Source of the DNA: a virus
Taxonomy: Duplodnaviria > Caudoviricetes
Strand: one strand, 5' to 3'
Virus record (IMG/VR): IMGVR_UViG_3300031993_000072
Coordinates: 1,330-65,329 of that record
DNA length: 64,000 nt
Positions 19,965-56,900 of the stretch are shown here, in pieces. Within the stretch, counting starts at the first letter, position 1. Each line of letters opens with the position of its first letter. The notes beneath the pieces are model-generated. The model saw only the letters and a program-made list of their open reading frames with translations, was not told the origin of the DNA and did no database searches. The position numbers and the translations under genes are program-made.

Positions 19965-20120
19965 TAGCAATATAGCCTTTTTTATTTTTTCGGCGCGGAA
20001 GGGGGTTACTTCCACCGGTCACGTTGTCGCCTGTTCCCCCCGGGGGAGTTTCCATTTTTTGGAAAATGGCTCCAGGTCCGGGAAAATGGAGCCGGGGCCA
20101 GCCCATTTTTTTTGATCGCA

Positions 20121-20420
20121 GGGGGCAGCAGGAGGCAGCAGGGGGCAGCAGGGGGCAGCAGGGGGCAGCAGGAGGCAGCAGGGGGCAGCAGGAGGCAGCA
20201 GGAGGCAGCAGGGGGCAGCAGGAGGCAGCAGGAGGCAGCAGGAGGCAGCAGGAGGACGCAGGAGGATACAGGAGGACGCAGGAGGATACAGGAGGACGCA
20301 GGAGGACGCAGGAGGATACAGGAGGACGCAGGAGGATACAGGAGGACGCAGGAGGACGCAGGAGGATACAGGAGGACGCAGGAGGACGCAGGAGGATACA
20401 GGAGGACGCAGGAGGACGCA
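20121..20420. repeat. 30 tandem decamers: 13x GG(G/A)GGCAGCA, then 17x GGAGGA(CG/TA)CA
   Basis: Counted directly: 6 GGGGGCAGCA, 7 GGAGGCAGCA, 11 GGAGGACGCA, 6 GGAGGATACA. Confidence 0.97.
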
Positions 20421-20438
20421 GGAAAATCAAACAACTTT

Positions 20439-20535
20439 GAATAATTGAGAATAACTTAGAATAAATTAGAATGATTAAGATTTATATATGATTTTTCCTG
20501 TTTTTGCCCGATATCGCCCGATATCGCCCGATATT
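20439..20535. repeat. Two more 10-bp-phased tracts: GAATAANTNA-like x4-5 and GCCCGATAT(C/T) x3
   Basis: Units start at 20439/49/59/69/79 and at 20506/16/26. Confidence 0.85.
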
Positions 20536-20549
20536 GCCTGTTTTTCAAC

Positions 20550-20578
20550 TTGATATGGCCATATAGCCATGATACAAT
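20550..20578 (+). promoter_or_regulatory. Strong sigmaA promoter driving the small-gene array
   Basis: TTGATA-17-TACAAT with extended TG; palindrome ATATGGCCATAT overlaps the -35/spacer. Confidence 0.8.
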
Positions 20579-20972: not shown

Positions 20973-21668
20973 ATGAAGTACGCAAAAGAGACACTAAGAA
21001 AGATTCTTGCTGTATTAGGTGACTTGATTGAAAAGTACATGTCCATGAGATATGAAGACCTGCGTTTACATATCTCAACCGGCAATAGAAAGATCGGACG
21101 TACACACAATTTCAGCATGGCGCCCGGATACACCTGCGCAAACTGTTCCGAGTGTATCAATTATTGCTACGACATCAAGGCTTGTTGGCAATATGAGAAC
21201 GTCCGGAAGGCCAGGTCTGAAAATACAGCACTCATGCGGAAGAACATGCCAGCAACCATGATGCTGATTAACAACTACATCAACAAAAAGCGTACACACA
21301 AGTTCTTCCGGTGGCATGTCTCCGGTGACATTCTAAGCGTGGAATACTTTGACTGGATGGTACGGATCGCAAAATGGCATCCGGACTGGATATTCTGGAC
21401 ATACACAAAAAATTACTACGCCGTCAATGAATGGGTGCGGAAGCATGGCGGAACGAAAAAATCCGTTCCGTCTAACCTGTCCGTCATGTATTCCATCTGG
21501 AATGGCATGGACTGCCCGAACCCGTACGGGTTCGCTACGTTCACATGCATCATGGAAGGCATGGAACCCGCTCCGGATAGTTGGGCCTGCCCGGGAAACT
21601 GCGATGCCTGCCTCCGCTCCGGTCATGGTTGTCCGTTCCAGGAATCCGCTCATGTCAACGCACACTAA
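20973..21668 (+). CDS. Gp88-like Cys-rich protein
   Basis: GNRKIG...TCANCSECINYCY...FFRWHVSGDI...WTYTK pattern. Confidence 0.65.
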   Translation: MKYAKETLRKILAVLGDLIEKYMSMRYEDLRLHISTGNRKIGRTHNFSMAPGYTCANCSECINYCYDIKACWQYENVRKARSENTALMRKNMPATMMLINNYINKKRTHKFFRWHVSGDILSVEYFDWMVRIAKWHPDWIFWTYTKNYYAVNEWVRKHGGTKKSVPSNLSVMYSIWNGMDCPNPYGFATFTCIMEGMEPAPDSWACPGNCDACLRSGHGCPFQESAHVNAH

Positions 21669-21761
21669 CAGGGCCGGCCGGATCCGCTCCGGCCGTTCCG
21701 GTTCTGAACCCGCTCCGGTGGATTCAGACCCGGGACGCAGTCCCGAATAAAAAACAGGAGG
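21666..21761 (+). repeat. Type-A intergenic triple-hairpin element, copy 1
   Basis: Shares TAACAGG.CCGG, CCCGCTCCGGTGGA and CCCGAATAAAA..CAGGAGG with 22040-22131. Confidence 0.8.
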
Positions 21762-21769
21762 AAAAAACA

Positions 21770-22042
21770 ATGGGTAACAATGAGGCGATCATTCACGACA
21801 TCGACGAACTCCAGGAACTCAAGCGGATGCGCGAGGAACTGGACGCGGCCATCGAGGCCGCCGCGGACAAGGTCAAGGCCGCTCTTGGCGACACCGAGAC
21901 CGGCGTATTCGGTCCATACAAGGTCACCTACAAGACGGTGGTCAGCACCCGGGTGGATACCACGGCGCTGAAGAAGGAACTGCCCGAGATCGCAGCCCGC
22001 TTCAGCAAGGCCTCCGAATCCCGGCCGCTCCGAATCACCTAA
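21770..22042 (+). CDS. Hypothetical protein (coiled coil plus VTYKTVVSTRVDTTALKK)
   Basis: AGGAGG RBS; resembles the C-terminal part of YqaJ-like phage proteins. Confidence 0.7.
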   Translation: MGNNEAIIHDIDELQELKRMREELDAAIEAAADKVKAALGDTETGVFGPYKVTYKTVVSTRVDTTALKKELPEIAARFSKASESRPLRIT

Positions 22043-22131
22043 CAGGACCGGCCCGCTCCGGCGGGCCTCCTGTCCTGCACCCGCTCCGGTGGATGCAGGA
22101 CAGGGGCATGGCCCCGAATAAAAGCAGGAGG
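22040..22131 (+). repeat. Type-A intergenic triple-hairpin element, copy 2
   Basis: Stems covary with copy 1 around an identical 14-nt apex. Confidence 0.8.
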
Positions 22132-22139
22132 ACAGAATC

Positions 22140-22289
22140 ATGGAAGACTGGACACAGTACGACGACAGCCAGCCAGACATCTCTGCCATGACCGGATTCG
22201 CTCCGCTGACAGACCTGGTTGACCGCAATGAACTGGCCTGGCTTGATGCCAAGGAACAAGTCTATGACTACCTGTACCGGAACAACTGA
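22140..22289 (+). CDS. Small acidic hypothetical protein (49 aa, not in ORF track)
   Basis: AGGAGG RBS; MEDWTQYDDSQPD...YLYRNN. Confidence 0.6.
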   Translation: MEDWTQYDDSQPDISAMTGFAPLTDLVDRNELAWLDAKEQVYDYLYRNN

Positions 22290-22365
22290 TGCTGACGCAC
22301 AGCGCCCGGATCCGCTCCGGACGCTCCGGTCAGAACCAGTCCGGTTCTGAAGAAGGAGGAAAAAT

Positions 22366-22719
22366 ATGGAAGACATTATTGTCGAACACGTACCGGTATC
22401 CGGTGCTGTCAAGGTCTACGACAGACTGTCACAGAAGGTCATCTTCTCCGGAACGGAAGACGTCATACCGATAGCGATCGCCAAGCAGAAACCGCTCCTG
22501 GTCTACTGCGTCGACAACACGCTGTATATCGACGTCGAATACCAGAAAGTCTACTACGACAAAGAGGCCAACTGGTACTACTACGAAAGCTTCTTCCGCT
22601 CCCAGTACGAAGAGTTCTGGGGAGACGAGAACGTAGAAGACTGGACCTTCGAAGATTTCCTGGCGGACATCCTAAACGAAGAAATAATCCAGGAGGTGAC
22701 GCTGCCGACCTGTAGCTGA
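22366..22719 (+). CDS. Hypothetical acidic protein (cassette)
   Basis: RBS; the stop codon is the TGA of hairpin element B1. Confidence 0.7.
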   Translation: MEDIIVEHVPVSGAVKVYDRLSQKVIFSGTEDVIPIAIAKQKPLLVYCVDNTLYIDVEYQKVYYDKEANWYYYESFFRSQYEEFWGDENVEDWTFEDFLADILNEEIIQEVTLPTCS

Positions 22720-22797
22720 CATTGACAGACGATGCCCGGAGATTCGCTCCGGACATCGCAGCCAGTGCCAGACACTGGGGAAAGAGAGGAAAGCAGT

Positions 22798-23142
22798 ATG
22801 GAACAGTTCGTATATGAAGGCCGCGGAAAAGGCGAACGCACCGGTCATGAGAGGATCGCAATGCGGAACATCCGCTACGCCATCAACTGGATCGTCGGCG
22901 GGCATTACAACAGCCTACAGGACGGACACCTGGAAGACCTTCCGAACAGCCTGGAGTCGGTCGAGAACGAGGTATACGCCTCCGCCATGGAAGACCTGTA
23001 CATGCCCGGGTACGTACTCGGCGGTCGCGCTCCGAAAGAGATGCGCTTCGCCGGGGCCGACTTCTGCCGAGCCTACATCCACTGGAAGCTGTCCCGGGAC
23101 GGAGACGTCCAGGAGATCGCACAGGTGGCCGGATGGAGGTGA
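22798..23142 (+). CDS. Hypothetical protein (cassette)
   Basis: GAGAGG RBS after B1. Confidence 0.7.
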   Translation: MEQFVYEGRGKGERTGHERIAMRNIRYAINWIVGGHYNSLQDGHLEDLPNSLESVENEVYASAMEDLYMPGYVLGGRAPKEMRFAGADFCRAYIHWKLSRDGDVQEIAQVAGWR

Positions 23143-23147
23143 CTGAC

Positions 23148-23354
23148 ATGGATGATTACCAGAGCATCGTAACCACCGACGTCGGTAACGGAACCCGATC
23201 CGCATACCTTGAGGCCTGGAATGAAGAAGTCCTCTTCAACATCGACGACGTCGACGATGGCCAGGTCATCGCACAGGGTCAGCGATCCGGAAAGTACTAC
23301 CTGCTCGACCTGGACGACTTCATGAACATTGCTGATGCACAGCTGTACATCTGA
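23148..23354 (+). CDS. Hypothetical acidic protein (cassette)
   Basis: GGAGG RBS; stop lies within B2. Confidence 0.65.
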   Translation: MDDYQSIVTTDVGNGTRSAYLEAWNEEVLFNIDDVDDGQVIAQGQRSGKYYLLDLDDFMNIADAQLYI

Positions 23355-23419
23355 CTTCGGCACCTGGTGTCCGGCTCCGGCCGGGCATCATAGCCGGTGC
23401 CAGACACCGGAGAAAGCAG

Positions 23420-23818
23420 GTGAGCAAATTGTTGCCGATCATCTTCATCAACTGTCGGAAGGAACCCTTTGTGGATGATATCATTGCATACCTCAAACAG
23501 TATGAGACCCGCAACAGGAACACACTCGGCCGGTTCCTCGGCGAACCGATCCTCCTGGCTGAGACCGGTCACGGACGACCGATCGTGAAGGCCTACGCAG
23601 TGATCGATCAGATCATCTCGGTCCGTTCCAAGGAAGACTGGGACGAGTACCTGGAGCAGACCTGGATCCCGGTCGGGTCTTCCTACGACTGGCAGCCGAA
23701 CACGAAAGTGAAATGGCTGTACCATCTGAAGGATGTCATCCCCTGCACACCGTTCATTCCGCCGGAAGGCCGGAGGCATGGAAGGGTGTGGATGGAATAC
23801 GAAGGAAAGGAGGCTTGA
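23420..23818 (+). CDS. ASCH/PUA-like domain protein
   Basis: PFVDDI...KQYETR...GEPILL pattern typical of ASCH folds. Confidence 0.55.
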   Translation: MSKLLPIIFINCRKEPFVDDIIAYLKQYETRNRNTLGRFLGEPILLAETGHGRPIVKAYAVIDQIISVRSKEDWDEYLEQTWIPVGSSYDWQPNTKVKWLYHLKDVIPCTPFIPPEGRRHGRVWMEYEGKEA

Positions 23819-23889
23819 ACTGACCTCGACAGACGGCGCCCGGGAGACCGGACGTCGTAGTCGGTGCCAGTCACCGAAAAAAAATCTGA

Positions 23890-23926
23890 AATAGGTATTG
23901 ACCTATTCTGAAATCCATGTTATCAT
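23890..23926 (+). promoter_or_regulatory. Internal sigmaA promoter with an operator-like inverted repeat
   Basis: TTGACC-17-TATCAT; AATAGGT-attg-ACCTATT overlaps the -35. Confidence 0.75.
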
Positions 23927-23971
23927 GAATCAGAAACAGGTGGACACCTATTGAGGAAGGAGGAAAAAGAC

Positions 23972-24724
23972 ATGGTGTATCCGATGCCGAAGGCCTACCG
24001 GACGCCGGGCGGATCGCTCTATGAACCCTTTGTGGAACTGAGCGAGAAACCGCACCTGCTGATCGCCGGGGCCACCGGAAGCGGGAAGTCCGTAGCGCTG
24101 AATGGGATCATCCATTCCCTGCTGCTGACACAGTCCCCGCTGAAGGTCCGGTTCGTACTGATCGATCCGAAGAAGGTGGAACTGGTGCAGTACTCGCGCC
24201 TTCCCCACACATCCCGGTACGCATCAGAACTTCCGGACATTATCCGGGCGCTCCAGTGGGCCGTCGACGAGACGAACCGTAGGTTCTCCGTCATGCAGCG
24301 GGAAGGCGTCCGGGAATACAACGGATCCCACATGTACGTCATCATCGACGAACTGGCAGATCTGATGGTAACCGTCCGGAAGGAATCCCTTCCGCTGCTG
24401 CAGAGACTGGCCCAGATCGGACGCGCTGCCCGGGTCCATGTAATTGCCTGCAGCCAGAACATTCTGGCCCAGACGATCCCTACCCCGCTGAAGTGCAACT
24501 TCAGCACGATCCTCGGCCTGCGGACGGCGAACGCGCAACAGTCCAGGTTCCTTATCTCGGCGACCGGCTGTGAAACGCTGCCGGACCCGAAGCGTGAAGG
24601 CAAAGGCTATGGGTTCCTCCGGGACGGTGCAGATCTGAATAAGCTTCTGATCTACAAGTACCCGGACGAACAGATCAACGCAGCGATCAAGTGGTGGACA
24701 TCCTCCGCCTGCATCGCATCATGA
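23972..24724 (+). CDS. Stand-alone FtsK/SpoIIIE ATPase domain protein
   Basis: PHLLIAGATGSGKS, LIDPKKVEL, YVIIDELADL, GRAARVHVI; no TM segments or gamma domain. Confidence 0.9.
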   Translation: MVYPMPKAYRTPGGSLYEPFVELSEKPHLLIAGATGSGKSVALNGIIHSLLLTQSPLKVRFVLIDPKKVELVQYSRLPHTSRYASELPDIIRALQWAVDETNRRFSVMQREGVREYNGSHMYVIIDELADLMVTVRKESLPLLQRLAQIGRAARVHVIACSQNILAQTIPTPLKCNFSTILGLRTANAQQSRFLISATGCETLPDPKREGKGYGFLRDGADLNKLLIYKYPDEQINAAIKWWTSSACIAS

Positions 24725-24739
24725 AAGGAGGAATAAGAA

Positions 24740-24976
24740 ATGTACGTGACTGAAATTGCCGGACAGATGAGCAACGCACGAAGCGTAAAGGTTGACAAGG
24801 AATTCGCCAGAAAAGGCAACGCAGTGAAAGCTGCACAGAAGGCCTTAAAGGACGGAGTGATTTACTTTGACAATCCGGAACTCTACAAATGGCAGCGCCG
24901 TGTAGAGGTTGAATCCGCAAGGGTTTACAACGAAGACAACCCGGAAGAATTCATCGAGATTACGATCGATAACTGA
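24740..24976 (+). CDS. Hypothetical protein (cassette)
   Basis: AAGGAGG RBS; stop in B4. Confidence 0.65.
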   Translation: MYVTEIAGQMSNARSVKVDKEFARKGNAVKAAQKALKDGVIYFDNPELYKWQRRVEVESARVYNEDNPEEFIEITIDN

Positions 24977-25042
24977 CATTGGCGGACGGCACCCGGGCAC
25001 CGGATGCCGTGGCCAGCGCCAGCTGGAGAAGGAGGAATAAGT

Positions 25043-25315
25043 ATGACAATCCATGACTGGATTACAGCTCATCCGGATGCACATCTCCGAATCATCCAGT
25101 ACACACCCGCTCCGGACGTAGAGGATGAACACGGAAACCTTGTGTACGGAGGAGAAGGAACAAGCGAGACAGTCTTCGATAGCACGACTGGTGAAGGAAA
25201 TCTTTCGGATCTGCTGCTGAAAGAAATCATCAACAGCGATTGGGAGGATGGACCAGCAGAAGATGGCGCTTACGAACTGGAATTCATGCCGGACGAGTAC
25301 TGGGTACAGTTCTGA
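25043..25315 (+). CDS. Hypothetical acidic protein (cassette)
   Basis: AAGGAGG RBS after B4. Confidence 0.65.
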   Translation: MTIHDWITAHPDAHLRIIQYTPAPDVEDEHGNLVYGGEGTSETVFDSTTGEGNLSDLLLKEIINSDWEDGPAEDGAYELEFMPDEYWVQF

Positions 25316-25330
25316 GAGGAGGAAACGCAA

Positions 25331-25609
25331 ATGACATTCACCCACAACCACAAGGATGATACCATCCTTGAACGTGACGGCAAGGACATTGACTTCACGT
25401 TCTTCGGCAACACGTTCACCTACGACGACGAGAACACAGACCGCATGTCATTCCAGATGACGCAGGAAGACCTGCTTCAGAAACTTGAACGGTACTTCAA
25501 TTCCGAGAATAAGGACTACGCAGAAATCTTCGACAACCTCACGCTTCCTGCACAGGATGCGCTGTGGAATGCACTGGTGTCCATGGAACGGAACGGAGTC
25601 ACATTGTGA
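25331..25609 (+). CDS. Hypothetical protein
   Basis: GAGGAGG RBS. Confidence 0.65.
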   Translation: MTFTHNHKDDTILERDGKDIDFTFFGNTFTYDDENTDRMSFQMTQEDLLQKLERYFNSENKDYAEIFDNLTLPAQDALWNALVSMERNGVTL

Positions 25610-25623
25610 GAGGAGGCGAAAGC

Positions 25624-25773
25624 ATGAAGATCATTACTGTCGGCGGACCTACGCTGCAACGCATCTTGTACGCAAACAAGATCGAACCGGCAACACTGAA
25701 ACCAGGATACATCATTCTGGATGAGTGCAGAACCATCGCACTGTCGGACGTCATCGCAATCATTCCAGCTTGA
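25624..25773 (+). CDS. Small hypothetical protein
   Basis: GGAGG RBS; stop in B5. Confidence 0.55.
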   Translation: MKIITVGGPTLQRILYANKIEPATLKPGYIILDECRTIALSDVIAIIPA

Positions 25774-25843
25774 CCTTGACAGACGGGACCTCCGCCGGAG
25801 ATCCCGTAGTCAGCGCCAGGCGCTGAAGAATAGGAGGAAAGCA

Positions 25844-26104
25844 ATGGGATTCACAACAAAGGATTACTTTGACTGCATCCACAAGATGCAGGAACGTGAC
25901 CGGACAGGCGACTGGCGTCAGTGGATCGCAGATGTATACCACTGCTCCGAATGCTGGGGACAGAAGACAACCGAACTGGAGATGCTCCTGGAACTGGCCG
26001 AAAGCAGGCGCCAGGCCGATCCGGAAGATTTCGTTCCGGACATCACCCTGTACCAGGAATGCGCTGCGTACTGGAACGAACTTGCAAACGCATATCCGAA
26101 CTGA
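25844..26104 (+). CDS. Hypothetical protein (cassette)
   Basis: AGGAGG RBS after B5. Confidence 0.65.
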   Translation: MGFTTKDYFDCIHKMQERDRTGDWRQWIADVYHCSECWGQKTTELEMLLELAESRRQADPEDFVPDITLYQECAAYWNELANAYPN

Positions 26105-26119
26105 GAGGAGGAACGAGCA

Positions 26120-26383
26120 ATGAGAACAGAGATCACAATCAAGTTCAAGAATGAACTCCGAAGAGCAAAGAAAAATCCTTCAGTGATTTTCGCTCCGACG
26201 TATTTCTATCCGAGAGATCTCCTTCTGGAACAGCCGGTGCGTGAGTCCAGAATGCACAGCACCGTTCTGGAAAAAACCGGAGATAAAAAGCTTGCAGACT
26301 TCATTGAGTCCTGGGCGCGGTTCGCAGCGATCGGGCAGAAATATGAAGACGGTACGCTGACCGCTGAGGTGTGCTGCTGGTAA
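26120..26383 (+). CDS. Hypothetical protein
   Basis: AGGAGG RBS. Confidence 0.65.
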   Translation: MRTEITIKFKNELRRAKKNPSVIFAPTYFYPRDLLLEQPVRESRMHSTVLEKTGDKKLADFIESWARFAAIGQKYEDGTLTAEVCCW

Positions 26384-26462
26384 TCTGATTTCGGCAGACG
26401 ACGCCCGGAGAAACCGGACGTCGCAGCCGGTACCAGACACCGGAGAAAGAGAGGAAAAAAAC

Positions 26463-26819
26463 ATGATGCTCAAAGCAACCATTTCAAAGATTGAACTGCT
26501 GTTCAGCAAAAACAACAAACCATTCTCGGATCTTCTCATTAAAATCCTTGAAGACTACCTTTCCAAAGCGGATCCGAAAGATCTGGGAGATATGCCTGCG
26601 GATTCCGCAAAGGATATTGCGGATGCGCTCTACGAACTGAAGCTTTCGCCAGCTAAAGGATTCTCTCCGCGCTGCCACATTAAGCTGTCTACACTTTTTG
26701 AGATCCAGAAAATTGTAGAAAAGTACTCAGCAACAGGGAACAGTATTCCAACCAGGTTCCTTGCAGTAAACCTGCATGACATGTACGAAAAACTTTCTCA
26801 GATGAAATATGAAGGTTGA
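26463..26819 (+). CDS. Hypothetical protein (cassette between B6 and B7)
   Basis: RBS after B6; stop in B7; more AT-rich than its neighbours. Confidence 0.65.
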   Translation: MMLKATISKIELLFSKNNKPFSDLLIKILEDYLSKADPKDLGDMPADSAKDIADALYELKLSPAKGFSPRCHIKLSTLFEIQKIVEKYSATGNSIPTRFLAVNLHDMYEKLSQMKYEG

Positions 26820-26890
26820 TTTCGGCGCCTGGGAGATCCGTTCCGGGTCTCTCATGGCCGGTACCAACCGGAGAAAGAGAGGAAAAAATC

Positions 26891-27220
26891 ATGGAGAAAG
26901 TGAGACTGATCGACACCCTTGACGGAATCCGGCTGACCTCCAGGTTTCCCGCATTCAAGGAAAACGGATTCACCTGGCAGCAGGCATTCTTCCAGGTGCT
27001 GCAGTGGAAGAACACCTGGGATCTTGCCTTCAGCGCAACGATCAACGCCAGCAGCAATCACGAAGCGTACCTGGAAATTGTCCTGTACGAAGCAGATCGC
27101 GCCGACCAGACCATTGAATGGCTGAACGGTCTCGGGTACCAGGATATCCATTCCGAAAAGGTCAAGATCGCCAACCTGGAAACAGACGACTACGACCTGG
27201 AGTACGCATACTTCGACTGA
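26891..27220 (+). CDS. Hypothetical protein (cassette between B7 and B8)
   Basis: RBS after B7; stop in B8. Confidence 0.65.
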   Translation: MEKVRLIDTLDGIRLTSRFPAFKENGFTWQQAFFQVLQWKNTWDLAFSATINASSNHEAYLEIVLYEADRADQTIEWLNGLGYQDIHSEKVKIANLETDDYDLEYAYFD

Positions 27221-27288
27221 TCTTGGCACTCATGGCCCGGGCAACCGGACCATGCAGCCAGCACCAGCTGGAGAAAGAAGGTACACTT

Positions 27289-27531
27289 ATGAACCGTATG
27301 AGAACCATCCTCTGCACCGAACACCAGGTTGACGAGAACCACAGCATACTCGTTATGTCCAGGAATCACTGCTTTGAAGCGTACCTGTTTTTCCAGGACG
27401 ATCACGGCGGAGAATCCGACATGCATCACATGTTCAGTGTTCCATGGGAATCCTGCAAAACGTATGAGCAATTCTACACAATGGCCATTGATGCCGCTCC
27501 GAACTATTACAACATCGTTGATGAAGTCTGA
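27289..27531 (+). CDS. Hypothetical protein (cassette between B8 and B9)
   Basis: RBS after B8; stop in B9. Confidence 0.65.
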   Translation: MNRMRTILCTEHQVDENHSILVMSRNHCFEAYLFFQDDHGGESDMHHMFSVPWESCKTYEQFYTMAIDAAPNYYNIVDEV

Positions 27532-27603
27532 TCCCGGTACCTGGGAACCGCACAGCGGTTCTCATAACCGGCACCAGGCCGGAGATTGGAGGATCGATCC
27601 ACT

Positions 27604-27795
27604 ATGAAAAGATACTTCCGCGACTTCTACGGATGCACCGCAAGCATCCGGACCCGCTACAACGGCAGGACCGAACTGGTCATCCGTACCGGCCTCGGAG
27701 GTCTGGTCCTCCGCCGGGAATACGACACCGAACGTGGCGCCAGGATCGCCATGGGGCAGTACAGCGACAGCTGGACCGAAACAACGAGGAGGTGA
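27604..27795 (+). CDS. Small basic hypothetical protein
   Basis: GGAGG RBS after B9. Confidence 0.65.
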   Translation: MKRYFRDFYGCTASIRTRYNGRTELVIRTGLGGLVLRREYDTERGARIAMGQYSDSWTETTRR

Positions 27796-27863
27796 TCTGA
27801 TTGATTTCATTCCTGGATCTGATGTATAATAAGTCCCCACCTATTAACCAAGGAGGATCCACC

Positions 27864-28055
27864 ATGCCAAAGAACAGCACCATTGCCCAACGGAAATACG
27901 ACTCCGCAAACTGCAAGTTTTATCACCTTAAGTTTAACCATAAGACAGACGCAGACGTGATCTCCAAGCTGGAGTCCGTTCCGTCAAAGCAAGACTATAT
28001 CCGGCAGCTGATCCGGAAGGACCTGGCTGCCACGACAGGAAAGAAGGAGGACTAA
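27864..28055 (+). CDS. Small ribbon-helix-helix-like DNA-binding protein
   Basis: AQRKYD...KFNHKTDADVISKLESVPSKQDYIRQLIRKD. Confidence 0.55.
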   Translation: MPKNSTIAQRKYDSANCKFYHLKFNHKTDADVISKLESVPSKQDYIRQLIRKDLAATTGKKED

Positions 28056-28058
28056 CCC

Positions 28059-28253
28059 ATGGAAAAGACTCTGTATACCGCTCTCATCAATGCTGAAGAT
28101 GGAGTCCACATCATTCGCAAGGAAGTATCCGACGACCACGGCGCGTACGAAGACTTTGAGTACGCAGTCCAGGACAAGGCCAACGATCTGGACGGTGAAC
28201 TGTTCGGACCGTACAGCCAGGACGACATCGTCGAAGACATTACCCTGGAATAA
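28059..28253 (+). CDS. Small acidic hypothetical protein
   Basis: AGGAGG RBS. Confidence 0.6.
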   Translation: MEKTLYTALINAEDGVHIIRKEVSDDHGAYEDFEYAVQDKANDLDGELFGPYSQDDIVEDITLE

Positions 28254-28273
28254 CCCATTCCATTTTTTCCTCT

Positions 28274-28312
28274 CGCCCGCTCCGGTTCCGGCCGGGGCGG
28301 GCCTTTTTTTTT
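28274..28312 (+). terminator. Rho-independent terminator closing the array
   Basis: GCCCGCTCCGG...CCGGGGCGGGC followed by a T-run. Confidence 0.85.
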
Positions 28313-54813: not shown

Positions 54814-55173
54814 ATGAAGTTTTCAGATAATCTTCGCAACCTTCGATTACAGCGCCAGCTTACACAAATGCAGCTTGCTGAAGATCTTCGCACGTCACAG
54901 TCTGCGATTACCAGCTGGGAAAACGGCAAACGTGAACCAGACTTCAAAACGATTGAACGGATTGCAAAATATTTTAATGTGCCGCTTTCAGCATTGCTCC
55001 CGTCCAGCGACAATTTGGATGATGCGTATGTCACTTCAATAGCGGAAGCATTTCAGCAGAATCCATATCTCAAGTTACTGTTTGACAGGCTTCGTTATAT
55101 GTCCGATAAGAATCTGAAGGTTATTATGGGTGTAGCAAATGCGCTTGCACATGATTCTGGTGAAGGCGTATGA
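54814..55173 (+). CDS. CI-like XRE repressor
   Basis: LTQMQLAEDLRTSQSAITSWENGKREPD; upstream of the integrase. Confidence 0.88.
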   Translation: MKFSDNLRNLRLQRQLTQMQLAEDLRTSQSAITSWENGKREPDFKTIERIAKYFNVPLSALLPSSDNLDDAYVTSIAEAFQQNPYLKLLFDRLRYMSDKNLKVIMGVANALAHDSGEGV

Positions 55174-56210
55174 AACCAAAGACCCGTGGAAACGGCCAGG
55201 GAACTGCATACCGTCGCGGTCAGACATGGACCGCATGTGTCACTATGGACTGGGCGCTGCCTGCGGATCCAACGAAACCGAAGAAACCGATTCGGAAGAC
55301 CAAAGGCGGATTTCAGACGAAACGTGACGCGCTTGCATATTGCCCAATCCTGCTGGCCGGCGGACATGAACGGCCTACGGAAGCACCGCGTCTATCTTCT
55401 TATTGGAAATCATATTCCGAAGGAGATATGTTGAAGATATCCAAAGGAAAACAAAGTGCATACCGCACTGCATGGAAAAAACTGAAACCGATCCACGATG
55501 TCCGCGTAGATTCCATTACAGTCGACCTGCTGCGGACTGTTGTTTCTGATGCCTGCCATTCCTTTGATACTGCAAAAGACTGCAAATCTCTTTTATCAAA
55601 CCTTTTTGAGTTGGCAGCGGCGGACCGATTTGCATCCAGGGAACTGCCATCCTATATTATTCTGCCGGAGCATATTGAGAACGAGCCGGTACCGTTTGAC
55701 CAGAAAGAACAGAAAAAGATCTGGAAAGCATATGATGATGGAGATCTCCGGGCAGCCGCACACTTGCTGATGATTTATACAGGCATGATGCCTGGGGAAG
55801 CGCAGAATCTTAAAGTTGAAAACATTGATTTGGAAAAGAAAATTATTATCCGGTCCGGTCTGAAAACAAAAGTTCGGAAAAAGACACCTTTGGTCCTTGC
55901 TGACTGTATTCTTCCCGTTGTCCAGGATCTGATTGACCATGCGCAACCTTCCGGATACGTTTGGAAACGAAATGAAAAAGCATGGTATGAAAACTACTAT
56001 GCTGTTCTGGAAGAAACAGGATGCCGCAGACTTACACCATATTCCTGCAGGCACACGACAGCAACCGCTTTAGCTGTCGATCAGAACGTTGCACCGCAAA
56101 CAATCAAAAAAATTATGCGGTGGTCGACGATGAAAATGCTGGACCACTATGCTCATCCGTCCACGGACGATGCGCTGGCCGGTGTAAACACGATGAAGAA
56201 ACCGGAATAG
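55170..56210 (+). CDS. int: Tyrosine integrase (atypical catalytic motif)
   Basis: Arm-binding N-terminus RGNGQGTAYRR; YTGMMPGE, PYSCRH, MRW, DHY. Confidence 0.88.
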   Translation: MKPKTRGNGQGTAYRRGQTWTACVTMDWALPADPTKPKKPIRKTKGGFQTKRDALAYCPILLAGGHERPTEAPRLSSYWKSYSEGDMLKISKGKQSAYRTAWKKLKPIHDVRVDSITVDLLRTVVSDACHSFDTAKDCKSLLSNLFELAAADRFASRELPSYIILPEHIENEPVPFDQKEQKKIWKAYDDGDLRAAAHLLMIYTGMMPGEAQNLKVENIDLEKKIIIRSGLKTKVRKKTPLVLADCILPVVQDLIDHAQPSGYVWKRNEKAWYENYYAVLEETGCRRLTPYSCRHTTATALAVDQNVAPQTIKKIMRWSTMKMLDHYAHPSTDDALAGVNTMKKPE

Positions 56211-56547: not shown

Positions 56548-56550
56548 AAG

Positions 56551-56900
56551 TGGAGGTGACGGGGGTCGAACCCGTGTCCAAACTACAACAAATACTGAGA
56601 TTTCTTACACGATAGTCAGATGCGATGACGCGCTGAGGAAAGGGAAAATCCTCTCATGTCCACCACCTGGTCTTTGAACTGTGACCAGGAGTTCAGCTGG
56701 CTTTTGCCAATCACCATTCATTCTCTGATCCGCAGGAAGTTACCGAATGGTAGGCCTTCCGTTTAAGAGCGAAGCTGCATTAAGCAGCCTTCAGTTCGCA
56801 GTAGATTTCTTCTTCGTCAGTTCTTTTGTTTGACCCATAAGGCGGTATCATACCCGTGATCTCAGTACCATTCATAGCCTGTCGAAACCATTTCACCCCC
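56551..56900 (-). ncRNA. ssrA: tmRNA
   Basis: 5' GGGGGTGAAATGGTTTCGAC; 3' GGGTTCGACCCCCGTCACCTCCA; G3:U acceptor pair; tag ORF 56780-56818 encodes (A)DEEEIYCELKAA*. Confidence 0.92.

Follow-up and report, generated by a model that had tools for sequence, protein, structure and literature searches.

The division of phage early messages into separately stable pieces has been well studied in only a few cases, namely T7, T3, SP82 and T4. Cutting at the RNase III sites of T7 leaves the upstream piece with a 3'-terminal hairpin, and in SP82 early RNA a purine-rich, Shine-Dalgarno-like tract stabilises the downstream piece after the action of Bs-RNase III. A 5' hairpin combined with a purine-rich Shine-Dalgarno tract also protects 5' ends in Firmicutes. 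The T7 sites (R0.3, R0.5, R1, R1.1 and R1.3) and those of SP82 recur as related hairpins, each about two helical turns long and with an asymmetric internal loop at its centre, placed between the cistrons of an early polycistronic message and co-oriented with its genes. A preliminary description of the operon analysed here had likened its repeated hairpins to integron attC sites, to the stem-loop cassettes of T4-type phages and to the T7 RNase III sites, and the last of these three analogies has turned out to be the best.

The operon belongs to a rumen-type phage and lies in a window of 64,000 nucleotides. Its gaps between small genes are filled by RNAs of about 65 bases, here called the two-state element, which make up the whole spacer from a stop codon to the ribosome binding site (RBS) of the next gene and represent an uncatalogued RNA family. 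They are present in ten copies, all on the + strand of this one operon. Nine had been described before; each was recovered in its place, with 57–80 bits from a covariance model built on these nine. The same model reveals a tenth copy, E0, missed previously (match 22284–22358, 39.6 bits), and no further one when both strands of the 65.3-kb phage record are searched. The copies and the transcription signals around them are the following:

20550–20578, + strand: promoter-like site at the head of the operon (TTGATA, 17 nt, TACAAT), the second hexamer being preceded by TG
22286–22350, + strand: E0; stop UGA 22287–22289, CCAG 22336–22339; arm 22292–22296 pairs with 22329–22333, inner hairpin 22300–22326, second hairpin 22330–22350
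22716–22778, + strand: E1; stop UGA 22717–22719, inner hairpin 22730–22758, CCAG 22768–22771, second hairpin 22762–22778
23351–23410, + strand: E2; stop UGA 23352–23354, inner hairpin 23365–23390, second hairpin 23394–23410; the gene that follows has a GTG start at 23420
23820–23877, + strand: E3; UGA 23821–23823 is not the stop, the true stop being 23816–23818
23898–23926, + strand: internal promoter-like site directly after E3, upstream of the gene for an FtsK-like protein
24973–25026, + strand: E4; stop UGA 24974–24976, second hairpin 25013–25026
25770–25826, + strand: E5; stop UGA 25771–25773; its 5' UUGA makes the lowest pair of the helix a U.G
26385–26443, + strand: E6; UGA 26386–26388 is not the stop, the true stop being the TAA at 26381–26383
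26816–26871, + strand: E7; UUGA is matched by CCAA, which compensates one base pair of the basal helix
27217–27271, + strand: E8; stop UGA 27218–27220
27528–27582, + strand: E9; stop UGA 27529–27531, arm pair CCGGU with ACCGG
28275–28311, + strand: strong intrinsic terminator ending the operon, a 12-bp stem followed by T9

The UGA is the stop codon of the upstream gene in eight of the ten window copies, in line with the seven of nine counted earlier, and in about 70 % of copies overall. In the remaining 30 % or so the true stop lies 1–10 nt upstream of the UGA, in E6 in a different frame. The spacing of 45–51 nt between UGA and CCAG reported for the original nine was likewise reproduced.

In state A the element forms a single long hairpin. 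A position profile of 82 copies gives its ends as CUGAY on the 5' side and YRCCAG on the 3' side, and these two ends pair with each other: C-U-G with the C-A-G of CCAG and, beyond an A that stands opposite a C in all copies, the Y following UGA with the R preceding CCAG (10 of 10 window copies, 76 of 82 overall), a pair that covaries. With a 1x1 mismatch and a 5-bp arm above them, they make up a basal helix of 11 steps (CUG/CAG, the invariant A.C, the Y-R pair, the mismatch and the arm). The outer stem of 4–5 bp in the preliminary description is therefore present as the 5-bp arm but extends below it into the UGA/CCAG helix, and what had been read as a 1-nt asymmetric internal loop is actually a conserved central 3x2 loop, A-S-A opposite Y-A. 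Of 43 copies, 30 have an inner stem of 10 bp and 42 one of 9–12 bp, in which step 3 is often a G.U and step 6 a C.A; the C.A noted at the neck in six of the nine copies was seen again. Since UGA and the 3' CCAG face each other in the basal helix, state A is a hairpin of about 22 stacked steps, and the 11 steps below and roughly 10 bp above put the internal loop about one helical turn from each end. It also follows from this pairing that a UGA retained beside another stop codon is a structural strand and not merely a stop.

State B is a small second hairpin of 5–8 bp that reuses the 3' arm of state A. At least four contiguous pairs of it can form in 93 % of copies, compared with 41 % after exchanging 3' arms among the copies, and in most copies it ends 15–21 nt before the start codon. 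That the two mutually exclusive folds both covary, as first proposed from nine copies, is borne out there (93 % of cells paired, double changes in 12 of 15 pairs, a level matched by 0 of 500 shuffles) and again in a larger alignment. In these 82 canonical copies from 38 phage contigs, states A and B both covary. The paired fraction of cells is 93.5 % and 95 %, with double changes in 16 of 19 and 12 of 19 pairs, none of 500 shuffles matches, and slid controls are only 31–48 % paired. The folds are close in energy, differing by 0.27 ± 2.7 kcal/mol over 43 copies, and the minimum-energy fold is state A in six window copies and state B in the other four.

All ten copies lie within predicted transcripts that run from the promoters at 20550 and 23898 to the terminator at 28275, and every one is co-oriented with the genes. 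Neighbouring copies are separated by one to three genes, and a gene for a resolvase, a small serine recombinase, is found at the operon's end. The terminator with its T9 indicates that this host uses U-tract terminators. No copy of the two-state element has a U-tract, and a terminator scan that called the real terminator at 28275 called none of the ten, which rejects an identity as intrinsic terminators. Promoter-like sites were looked for inside the copies as well and none was found, the site at 23898 coming after E3; here an A-run and this internal promoter follow the element in place of an RBS.

The most telling clue to what such a spacer might do comes from more distant sister phages, whose FtsK-like protein shows 47–55 % identity. 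In 11 of their 35 loci we find four type II hammerhead (RF02276) and eight pistol (RF02679) ribozymes, all 12 on the gene strand and 11 of them starting 0–4 nt after a stop codon and ending before the next RBS, which comes 17–104 nt later; two are flanked by homologues of genes of the present operon. Their length of about 67 nt is close to that of the two-state element, and they occupy the same slot on the same strand of homologous operons, with the next RBS behind them, and they differ in that their conserved cores and junctions are absent from the element. The ribozymes and the element replace each other by lineage: the 42 loci of the element-bearing group yielded no ribozyme, and no two-state element was found in the ribozyme-bearing group. 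Because the two never occur in one contig, it is only the homologous slot that links them. The search of Rfam 15 that detects hammerhead II and pistol RNAs in the sister loci matches nothing in 21600–27900, even at E values up to 5, so that the known self-cleaving classes (hammerhead, pistol, twister, twister-sister, hatchet, HDV, hairpin) are all without a match here. The presence of self-cutting RNAs in the same gaps of related phages suggests that the two-state element is most likely an mRNA cutting and capping site and not a DNA recombination site, and the use of three devices (hammerhead, pistol and two-state hairpin) in one slot between stop codon and RBS provides natural evidence for a processing site.

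We therefore favour, with chances that we judge about even, a junction RNA that directs cleavage, probably by the RNase III of the host, and then refolds to cap the downstream piece; that the element acts in the polycistronic early mRNA and not in DNA can be held with the same moderate confidence. State A would form first during transcription and be cut in or near the internal loop, the cutting, the enzyme (most likely host RNase III) and the position all being predictions from the structure and its setting. The inner hairpin would stay behind as the 3' end of the upstream piece, and the freed 3' arm would refold into the 5–8 bp of state B, starting 1–3 nt from the new 5' end and followed by the purine-rich Shine-Dalgarno tract, so that each cistron would come to have its own capped message. 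The layout of an RNase III signal is indeed there, since the hairpin lies between cistrons on the transcribed strand, spans about two helical turns and has its internal loop at the centre, about one turn from each end as in the T7 sites. The phages have no RNase III gene, and the enzyme is encoded by a Clostridia-type genome in which the 3' end of the phage's tmRNA recurs. In contrast to the T7 and SP82 sites, which are cleaved, the cleavage of the two-state element is only predicted; it has no sequence similarity to them, and the second fold reusing the 3' arm, the invariant A.C and the stop codon in the basal helix are its own. To our knowledge bacterial RNase III does not require invariant nucleotides, and the invariant A.C and the CUGA/CCAG strands may thus point to another factor or to self-cleavage. 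Wobbles and mismatches at systematic positions are symmetric between the strands (two G.U and two A.C) and, with sporadic G.U exceeding A.C by a factor of only about 2, it is mainly orientation and context that decide the strand. Close relatives with the same genes and zero copies, such as locus L009, indicate that the element is dispensable. Short and well defined, it is a candidate for self-cleavage or for a new nuclease signal and, should the refolding model be true, would offer operon design in Firmicutes a compact natural part with two functions, the separation of cistrons and the capping of the new 5' end.

The preliminary description had also offered a translation-coupled RNA switch or processing signal, and of this proposal the two folds and the processing function, to which the ribozymes in the same slot point, hold up better than a switch that hides the RBS. 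A ribosome arriving at the UGA would have to melt the basal helix and the 5' arm, allowing the second hairpin to form, so that upstream translation would be reported or exploited, for instance in coupling, re-initiation or nuclease protection, with no cleavage at all. In favour of such a switch or insulator, the UGA is embedded in the basal helix with 2 nt between it and the arm and serves as the true stop in about 70 % of copies, the states are nearly isoenergetic, and the second hairpin in most copies ends 15–21 nt ahead of the start codon. However, the predicted accessibility of the initiation region is 0.62 in state A, 0.63 in state B and 0.61 with a ribosome at the stop (Wilcoxon p = 0.7), and the folding models, in which accessibility is alike in both states, leave simple RBS occlusion unsupported. 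Moreover, E3-type copies precede a promoter and not an RBS, about 30 % of copies have their real stop 1–10 nt upstream (out of frame in E6), and the ribozymes that take the slot elsewhere would go unexplained, which makes a switch without cleavage rather unlikely. An RNA that cuts itself has the following in its favour: 12 known ribozymes sit in the same slot and strand of homologous operons and are replaced by lineage, the element has invariant non-canonical positions, and no Rfam 15 family matches it even at E values up to 5. A search for RNAs associated with ribozymes (RAGATH; Weinberg et al. [quoted passage not shown] Against this, the element folds as one hairpin without branches, has few conserved nucleotides and offers neither junction nor pseudoknot for an active site, its second hairpin and purine tract are easier to explain as a 5' cap for a nuclease-made end, and most motifs from ribozyme-association searches are reported to show no self-cleavage when tested. 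We hence regard a new self-cleaving class as improbable. The same low estimate applies to the wider formulation, in which a self-cleaving or self-refolding processing RNA replaces hammerhead and pistol at the junctions of one lineage of Clostridia phages, with the A.C and the 3x2 loop as active site and the second hairpin as cap.

Readings at the level of DNA start from the variability of the junctions. Of 53 junctions with an element 2 are conserved between phages, as against 64 of 293 without one (Fisher p = 0.001), copies from different phages never share both flanking gene families, homology blocks between relatives start or stop inside elements, and the operon closes with a resolvase gene. 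One might thus think of a folded site like attC, of a target for the small serine recombinase, or of repeated homology for module exchange as proposed for the promoter-early stem-loop (PeSL) of T4-type phages. The resemblance to attC is real: in both cases an imperfect palindrome has conserved ends and a variable top, with mismatches and an unpaired spacer at the centre, stands behind small co-oriented genes of unknown function and often includes the stop codon. However, the RYYYAAC (R'') and GTTRRRY (R') cores are absent from the element ends in the 82-copy profile, and no IntI model matches the phage's sole tyrosine recombinase (55170–56210), an ordinary phage integrase beside the tmRNA gene 27 kb away, for which the nearest Xer/integron NCBIfam model gives 33.7 bits against a cut-off of 220 bits. 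The copies lie within transcripts, cassettes do not each have a copy of their own, and the unit also includes a third complementary segment and the RBS tract, so the integron-like array or new cassette-shuffling site initially proposed is not supported. Loci L013 and L017 differ by a four-gene block that in L017 is inserted directly behind the purine tract of one element and has no element at its far end, which is likewise at odds with cassettes that come and go as units of ORF and site. In addition, the resolvase family also occurs in element-free relatives such as L009, where gene order is equally mosaic, covarying stems of variable sequence speak against a site recognised by protein as double strand, and, given how similar all copies are to one another, finding block ends within them is partly trivial. 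The PeSL likewise consists of short repeats beside small early genes in a highly variable region, but it holds an early promoter and the two-state element does not, and the analogy fails for this reason. Taken together, a DNA-level site is very unlikely. Equally remote, if not slightly more so, is a selfish miniature element of the MITE or REP type that spreads into intergenic gaps and is merely tolerated there. It would account for the copy number, which spans 0 to 10 in close relatives that have these genes in common, and for the GUAG-like linker ahead of the second hairpin. Yet the Y1 (RAYT/IS200) transposase PF01797 is absent from four element-bearing phages and the host-type genome, zero copies occur in the 1.8 Mb of that genome or elsewhere in the phages, and both facts reject a RAYT-mobilised REP/BIME. 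All copies share one orientation and one register between stop codon and RBS, neither terminal inverted repeats nor target duplications were seen, and a search for a filled and an empty version of one site found no such pair.

Repeats confined to one orientation are also present in Cluster K mycobacteriophages, where the start-associated sequences (SAS) and their extended form (ESAS), whose function is unknown, are restricted to the non-structural half of the genome and lie immediately upstream of start codons, with the RBS included; about half contain an inverted repeat (PMC3203893). The two-state element shares with them the single orientation and the position immediately upstream of starts. 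The ESAS arms, however, are of conserved sequence and tied to a gene family across genomes (PMC3203893), whereas in the two-state element the stems covary and the flanking genes change. Since it marks the most variable junctions of the operon, the element is a practical landmark for accessory genes, possibly anti-defence genes, in uncultured rumen phages.

The 65.3-kb IMG/VR record, of which the window spans bases 1330–65329, is flanked by direct terminal repeats. The window encodes its portal and large terminase on the minus strand, and the element considered here, an RNA hairpin of about 65 bases, belongs to a plus-strand operon with the following landmarks:

About 20.5 to 28.3 kb, plus strand: operon, opening with a promoter-like site (20550) and closed by a strong intrinsic terminator (28275)
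23898 and 27801, plus strand: internal promoter-like sites of the operon, from a sequence scan

Among the products of the operon are a GP88-family protein and a motor-only FtsK-like ATPase, together with many small proteins that match nothing in Pfam or PHROG; a small serine resolvase gene with its own promoter follows. The operon junctions are of two sorts: some are 15-nt spacers with a ribosome binding site (RBS) alone, and ten others carry the element. The preliminary description had counted nine copies. A covariance model built from these recovered all nine at 57–80 bits, but the count was too low, since a search of both strands of the whole phage record detected a further copy at 22284–22358, and no other match.

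The element starts with C-U-G-A-Y-N, followed by a 5-nt arm, Y-Y-G-R-C, and A-S-A. Then come an inner hairpin, Y-A, a second arm complementary to the first (G-Y-C-R-G) and Y-R-C-C-A-G; a third segment able to pair back onto this second arm lies ahead of a purine-rich RBS tract and the start codon of the following gene. The outer stem, initially described as 4–5 bp, exists but is merely part of a longer helix in which C-U-G pairs with C-A-G. A C faces the A of the UGA in all 82 canonical copies, while the Y after UGA and the R before CCAG form U-A in 38 copies, C-G in another 38 and no pair in 6; this pair is kept in 10/10 window copies. Apart from a few exceptions, rare basal variants are compensated (CGGA with CCCG, AUGA with CCAU, UUGA with CCAA). 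Among 43 parsed copies, the inner stem measures 10 bp in 30; its third step is frequently a G.U and its sixth a C.A.

Two folds are available to this sequence. In state A the element forms a single hairpin, roughly 22 stacked steps long and interrupted halfway by a conserved 3x2 loop. In state B the inner hairpin is retained and the lower helix is replaced by a hairpin of 5–8 bp, with CCAG in or beside its loop. State B is found in 93 % of copies versus 41 % of swapped controls, the energy gap between the two states is 0.27 ± 2.7 kcal/mol, and of the ten window copies RNAfold puts six in state A and the remaining four in state B. A suspected pseudoknot between the loop of the second hairpin and the 5' CUG was reread as an extension of the helix of state A, and a kink-turn in the 3x2 loop was ruled out because tandem G.A pairs are impossible there. 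Wobble counts are a weaker strand test than first thought, since the four systematic non-Watson-Crick positions are strand-symmetric.

IMG/VR contains 308 relatives of the FtsK-like protein. In the closest relatives the covariance model detected 49 further copies, 49/49 on the gene strand, and 33 more came from scanning all viral contigs with a degenerate pattern. Three complete relatives have their copies in the same operon and nowhere else; the model found none in a fourth. A pattern scan of bacterial genomes gave at least 120 matches, and of the 80 stretches fetched two scored as real copies, both on phage-like contigs binned with Clostridia, the other 78 reaching at most 27.5 bits each. 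Rfam 15 holds no family matching the element, similar DNA was not found in phage and plasmid collections, and a search of genome contigs for prophage relatives via the FtsK-like protein returned solely host FtsK at less than 40 % identity.

What occupies the same place in more distant relatives is informative. An Rfam search over the sister loci detected no ribozyme in the element-bearing group; in the more distant group, whose FtsK-like protein is 47–55 % identical, 11 of 35 loci carry ribozymes, all of them in early operons of uncultured related phages:

L041 4739–4807, L045 5673–5740, L046 2262–2330 and L069 5366–5432, gene strand: four type II hammerheads (Rfam)
L056, L058 (two copies), L059, L061, L063, L065 and L071, gene strand: eight pistol ribozymes (Rfam)

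All 12 are on the gene strand and 11 of them start 0–4 nt past the upstream stop codon, with an RBS and start codon 17–104 nt downstream. One hammerhead follows a homologue (50 % identity) of the window gene at 21770–22042, a gene that in the window has a different structured spacer behind it, and another sits upstream of a GP88-family gene homologue. Given these ribozymes in the homologous slot, the stretch from stop codon to RBS is, by analogy, most likely where the message of these phages is cut.

State A is laid out like a T7-type RNase III site, its loop being placed roughly one helical turn from either end. Cleavage on the 3' side of the 3x2 loop would leave the inner hairpin at the 3' end of the upstream piece. 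With the second arm thereby released, state B could form within 1–3 nt of the new 5' end, and a strong Shine-Dalgarno (SD) tract would then follow this hairpin on the downstream piece. In B. subtilis mRNA decay, a 5' hairpin together with a strong SD tract keeps RNase J1 away from 5'-monophosphate ends. A type II hammerhead yields the same two capped ends unaided. We infer the cutting of the element, the enzyme and the cleavage site alike; self-cleavage by the element itself is possible, if rather improbable.

Other readings of the element fare less well. The integron-like site originally proposed does not hold: IntI and attC cores are absent and the rule of one site per cassette is broken. 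Element-bearing junctions are indeed less often conserved between phages than others (2/53 versus 64/293, p = 0.001). Against a recombination site, mosaicism is just as strong in relatives that lack the element, and in the one clean case, locus L013 against locus L017, the break falls directly after the purine tract, with an element on a single side. We read the lower conservation as a by-product of repeated sequence lying at variable junctions, and not as the mark of a dedicated recombination site. Element identity shows no general tie to the upstream or downstream gene (means of 0.67 and 0.66, background 0.65), the element being kept together with its downstream gene in the closest relatives alone. 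The single pair of filled and empty junctions located is too diverged to read. A REP/RAYT element was rejected, there being neither a Y1 transposase nor chromosomal copies.

At the RNA level, the elements lack the U-tract of the true operon terminator, which speaks against intrinsic termination, and selenocysteine insertion or read-through at the UGA was rejected because, by eye, the downstream frames are inconsistent and E1, the first of the nine original copies, has another in-frame stop two codons later. A switch occluding the RBS was dropped because accessibility is the same in both states: partition-function folding of 39 copies predicts an unpaired probability for the initiation region of 0.62 in state A, 0.63 in state B and 0.61 when the first 11 nt are blocked to mimic a ribosome at the stop codon.

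Structured spacers seem to be the norm in this operon. A second, distinct family of three-hairpin spacers fills two junctions upstream of the array (21669–21769 and 22043–22139), and the orthologous junction in sister locus L069 is occupied by a type II hammerhead. In element-free relatives (junctions of L009, L015, L021, L025, L030 and L032), plain GC-rich hairpins with no U-tract often lie between the same kinds of genes. The 9-mer CCGCTCCGG occurs nine times in the window, against 0.43 expected, always on the plus strand and within the operon (21568–28285): at the apex of junction hairpins, within the tenth copy of the element, in the stem of the operon terminator and at three sites in coding sequence. 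The same motif tops the inner hairpin in many relatives.

A full-length tmRNA gene (56550–56900, minus strand, 103 bits, whole model matched) lies alongside an integrase gene (55170–56210, plus strand). Its tag peptide, DEEEIYCELKAA, ends in KAA where LAA is usual. The 3' 33 nt of this tmRNA are identical in an Oscillospiraceae genome, and the phage therefore probably integrates at the host ssrA. The element is absent from that genome, which does encode RNase III. Finally, between a divergent repressor-like gene and the operon promoter, positions 20059–20540 hold about 30 purine-rich 10-bp tandem units, then AT-rich and GCCCGATAT decamers; the units look like iterons or a packaging/partition site.
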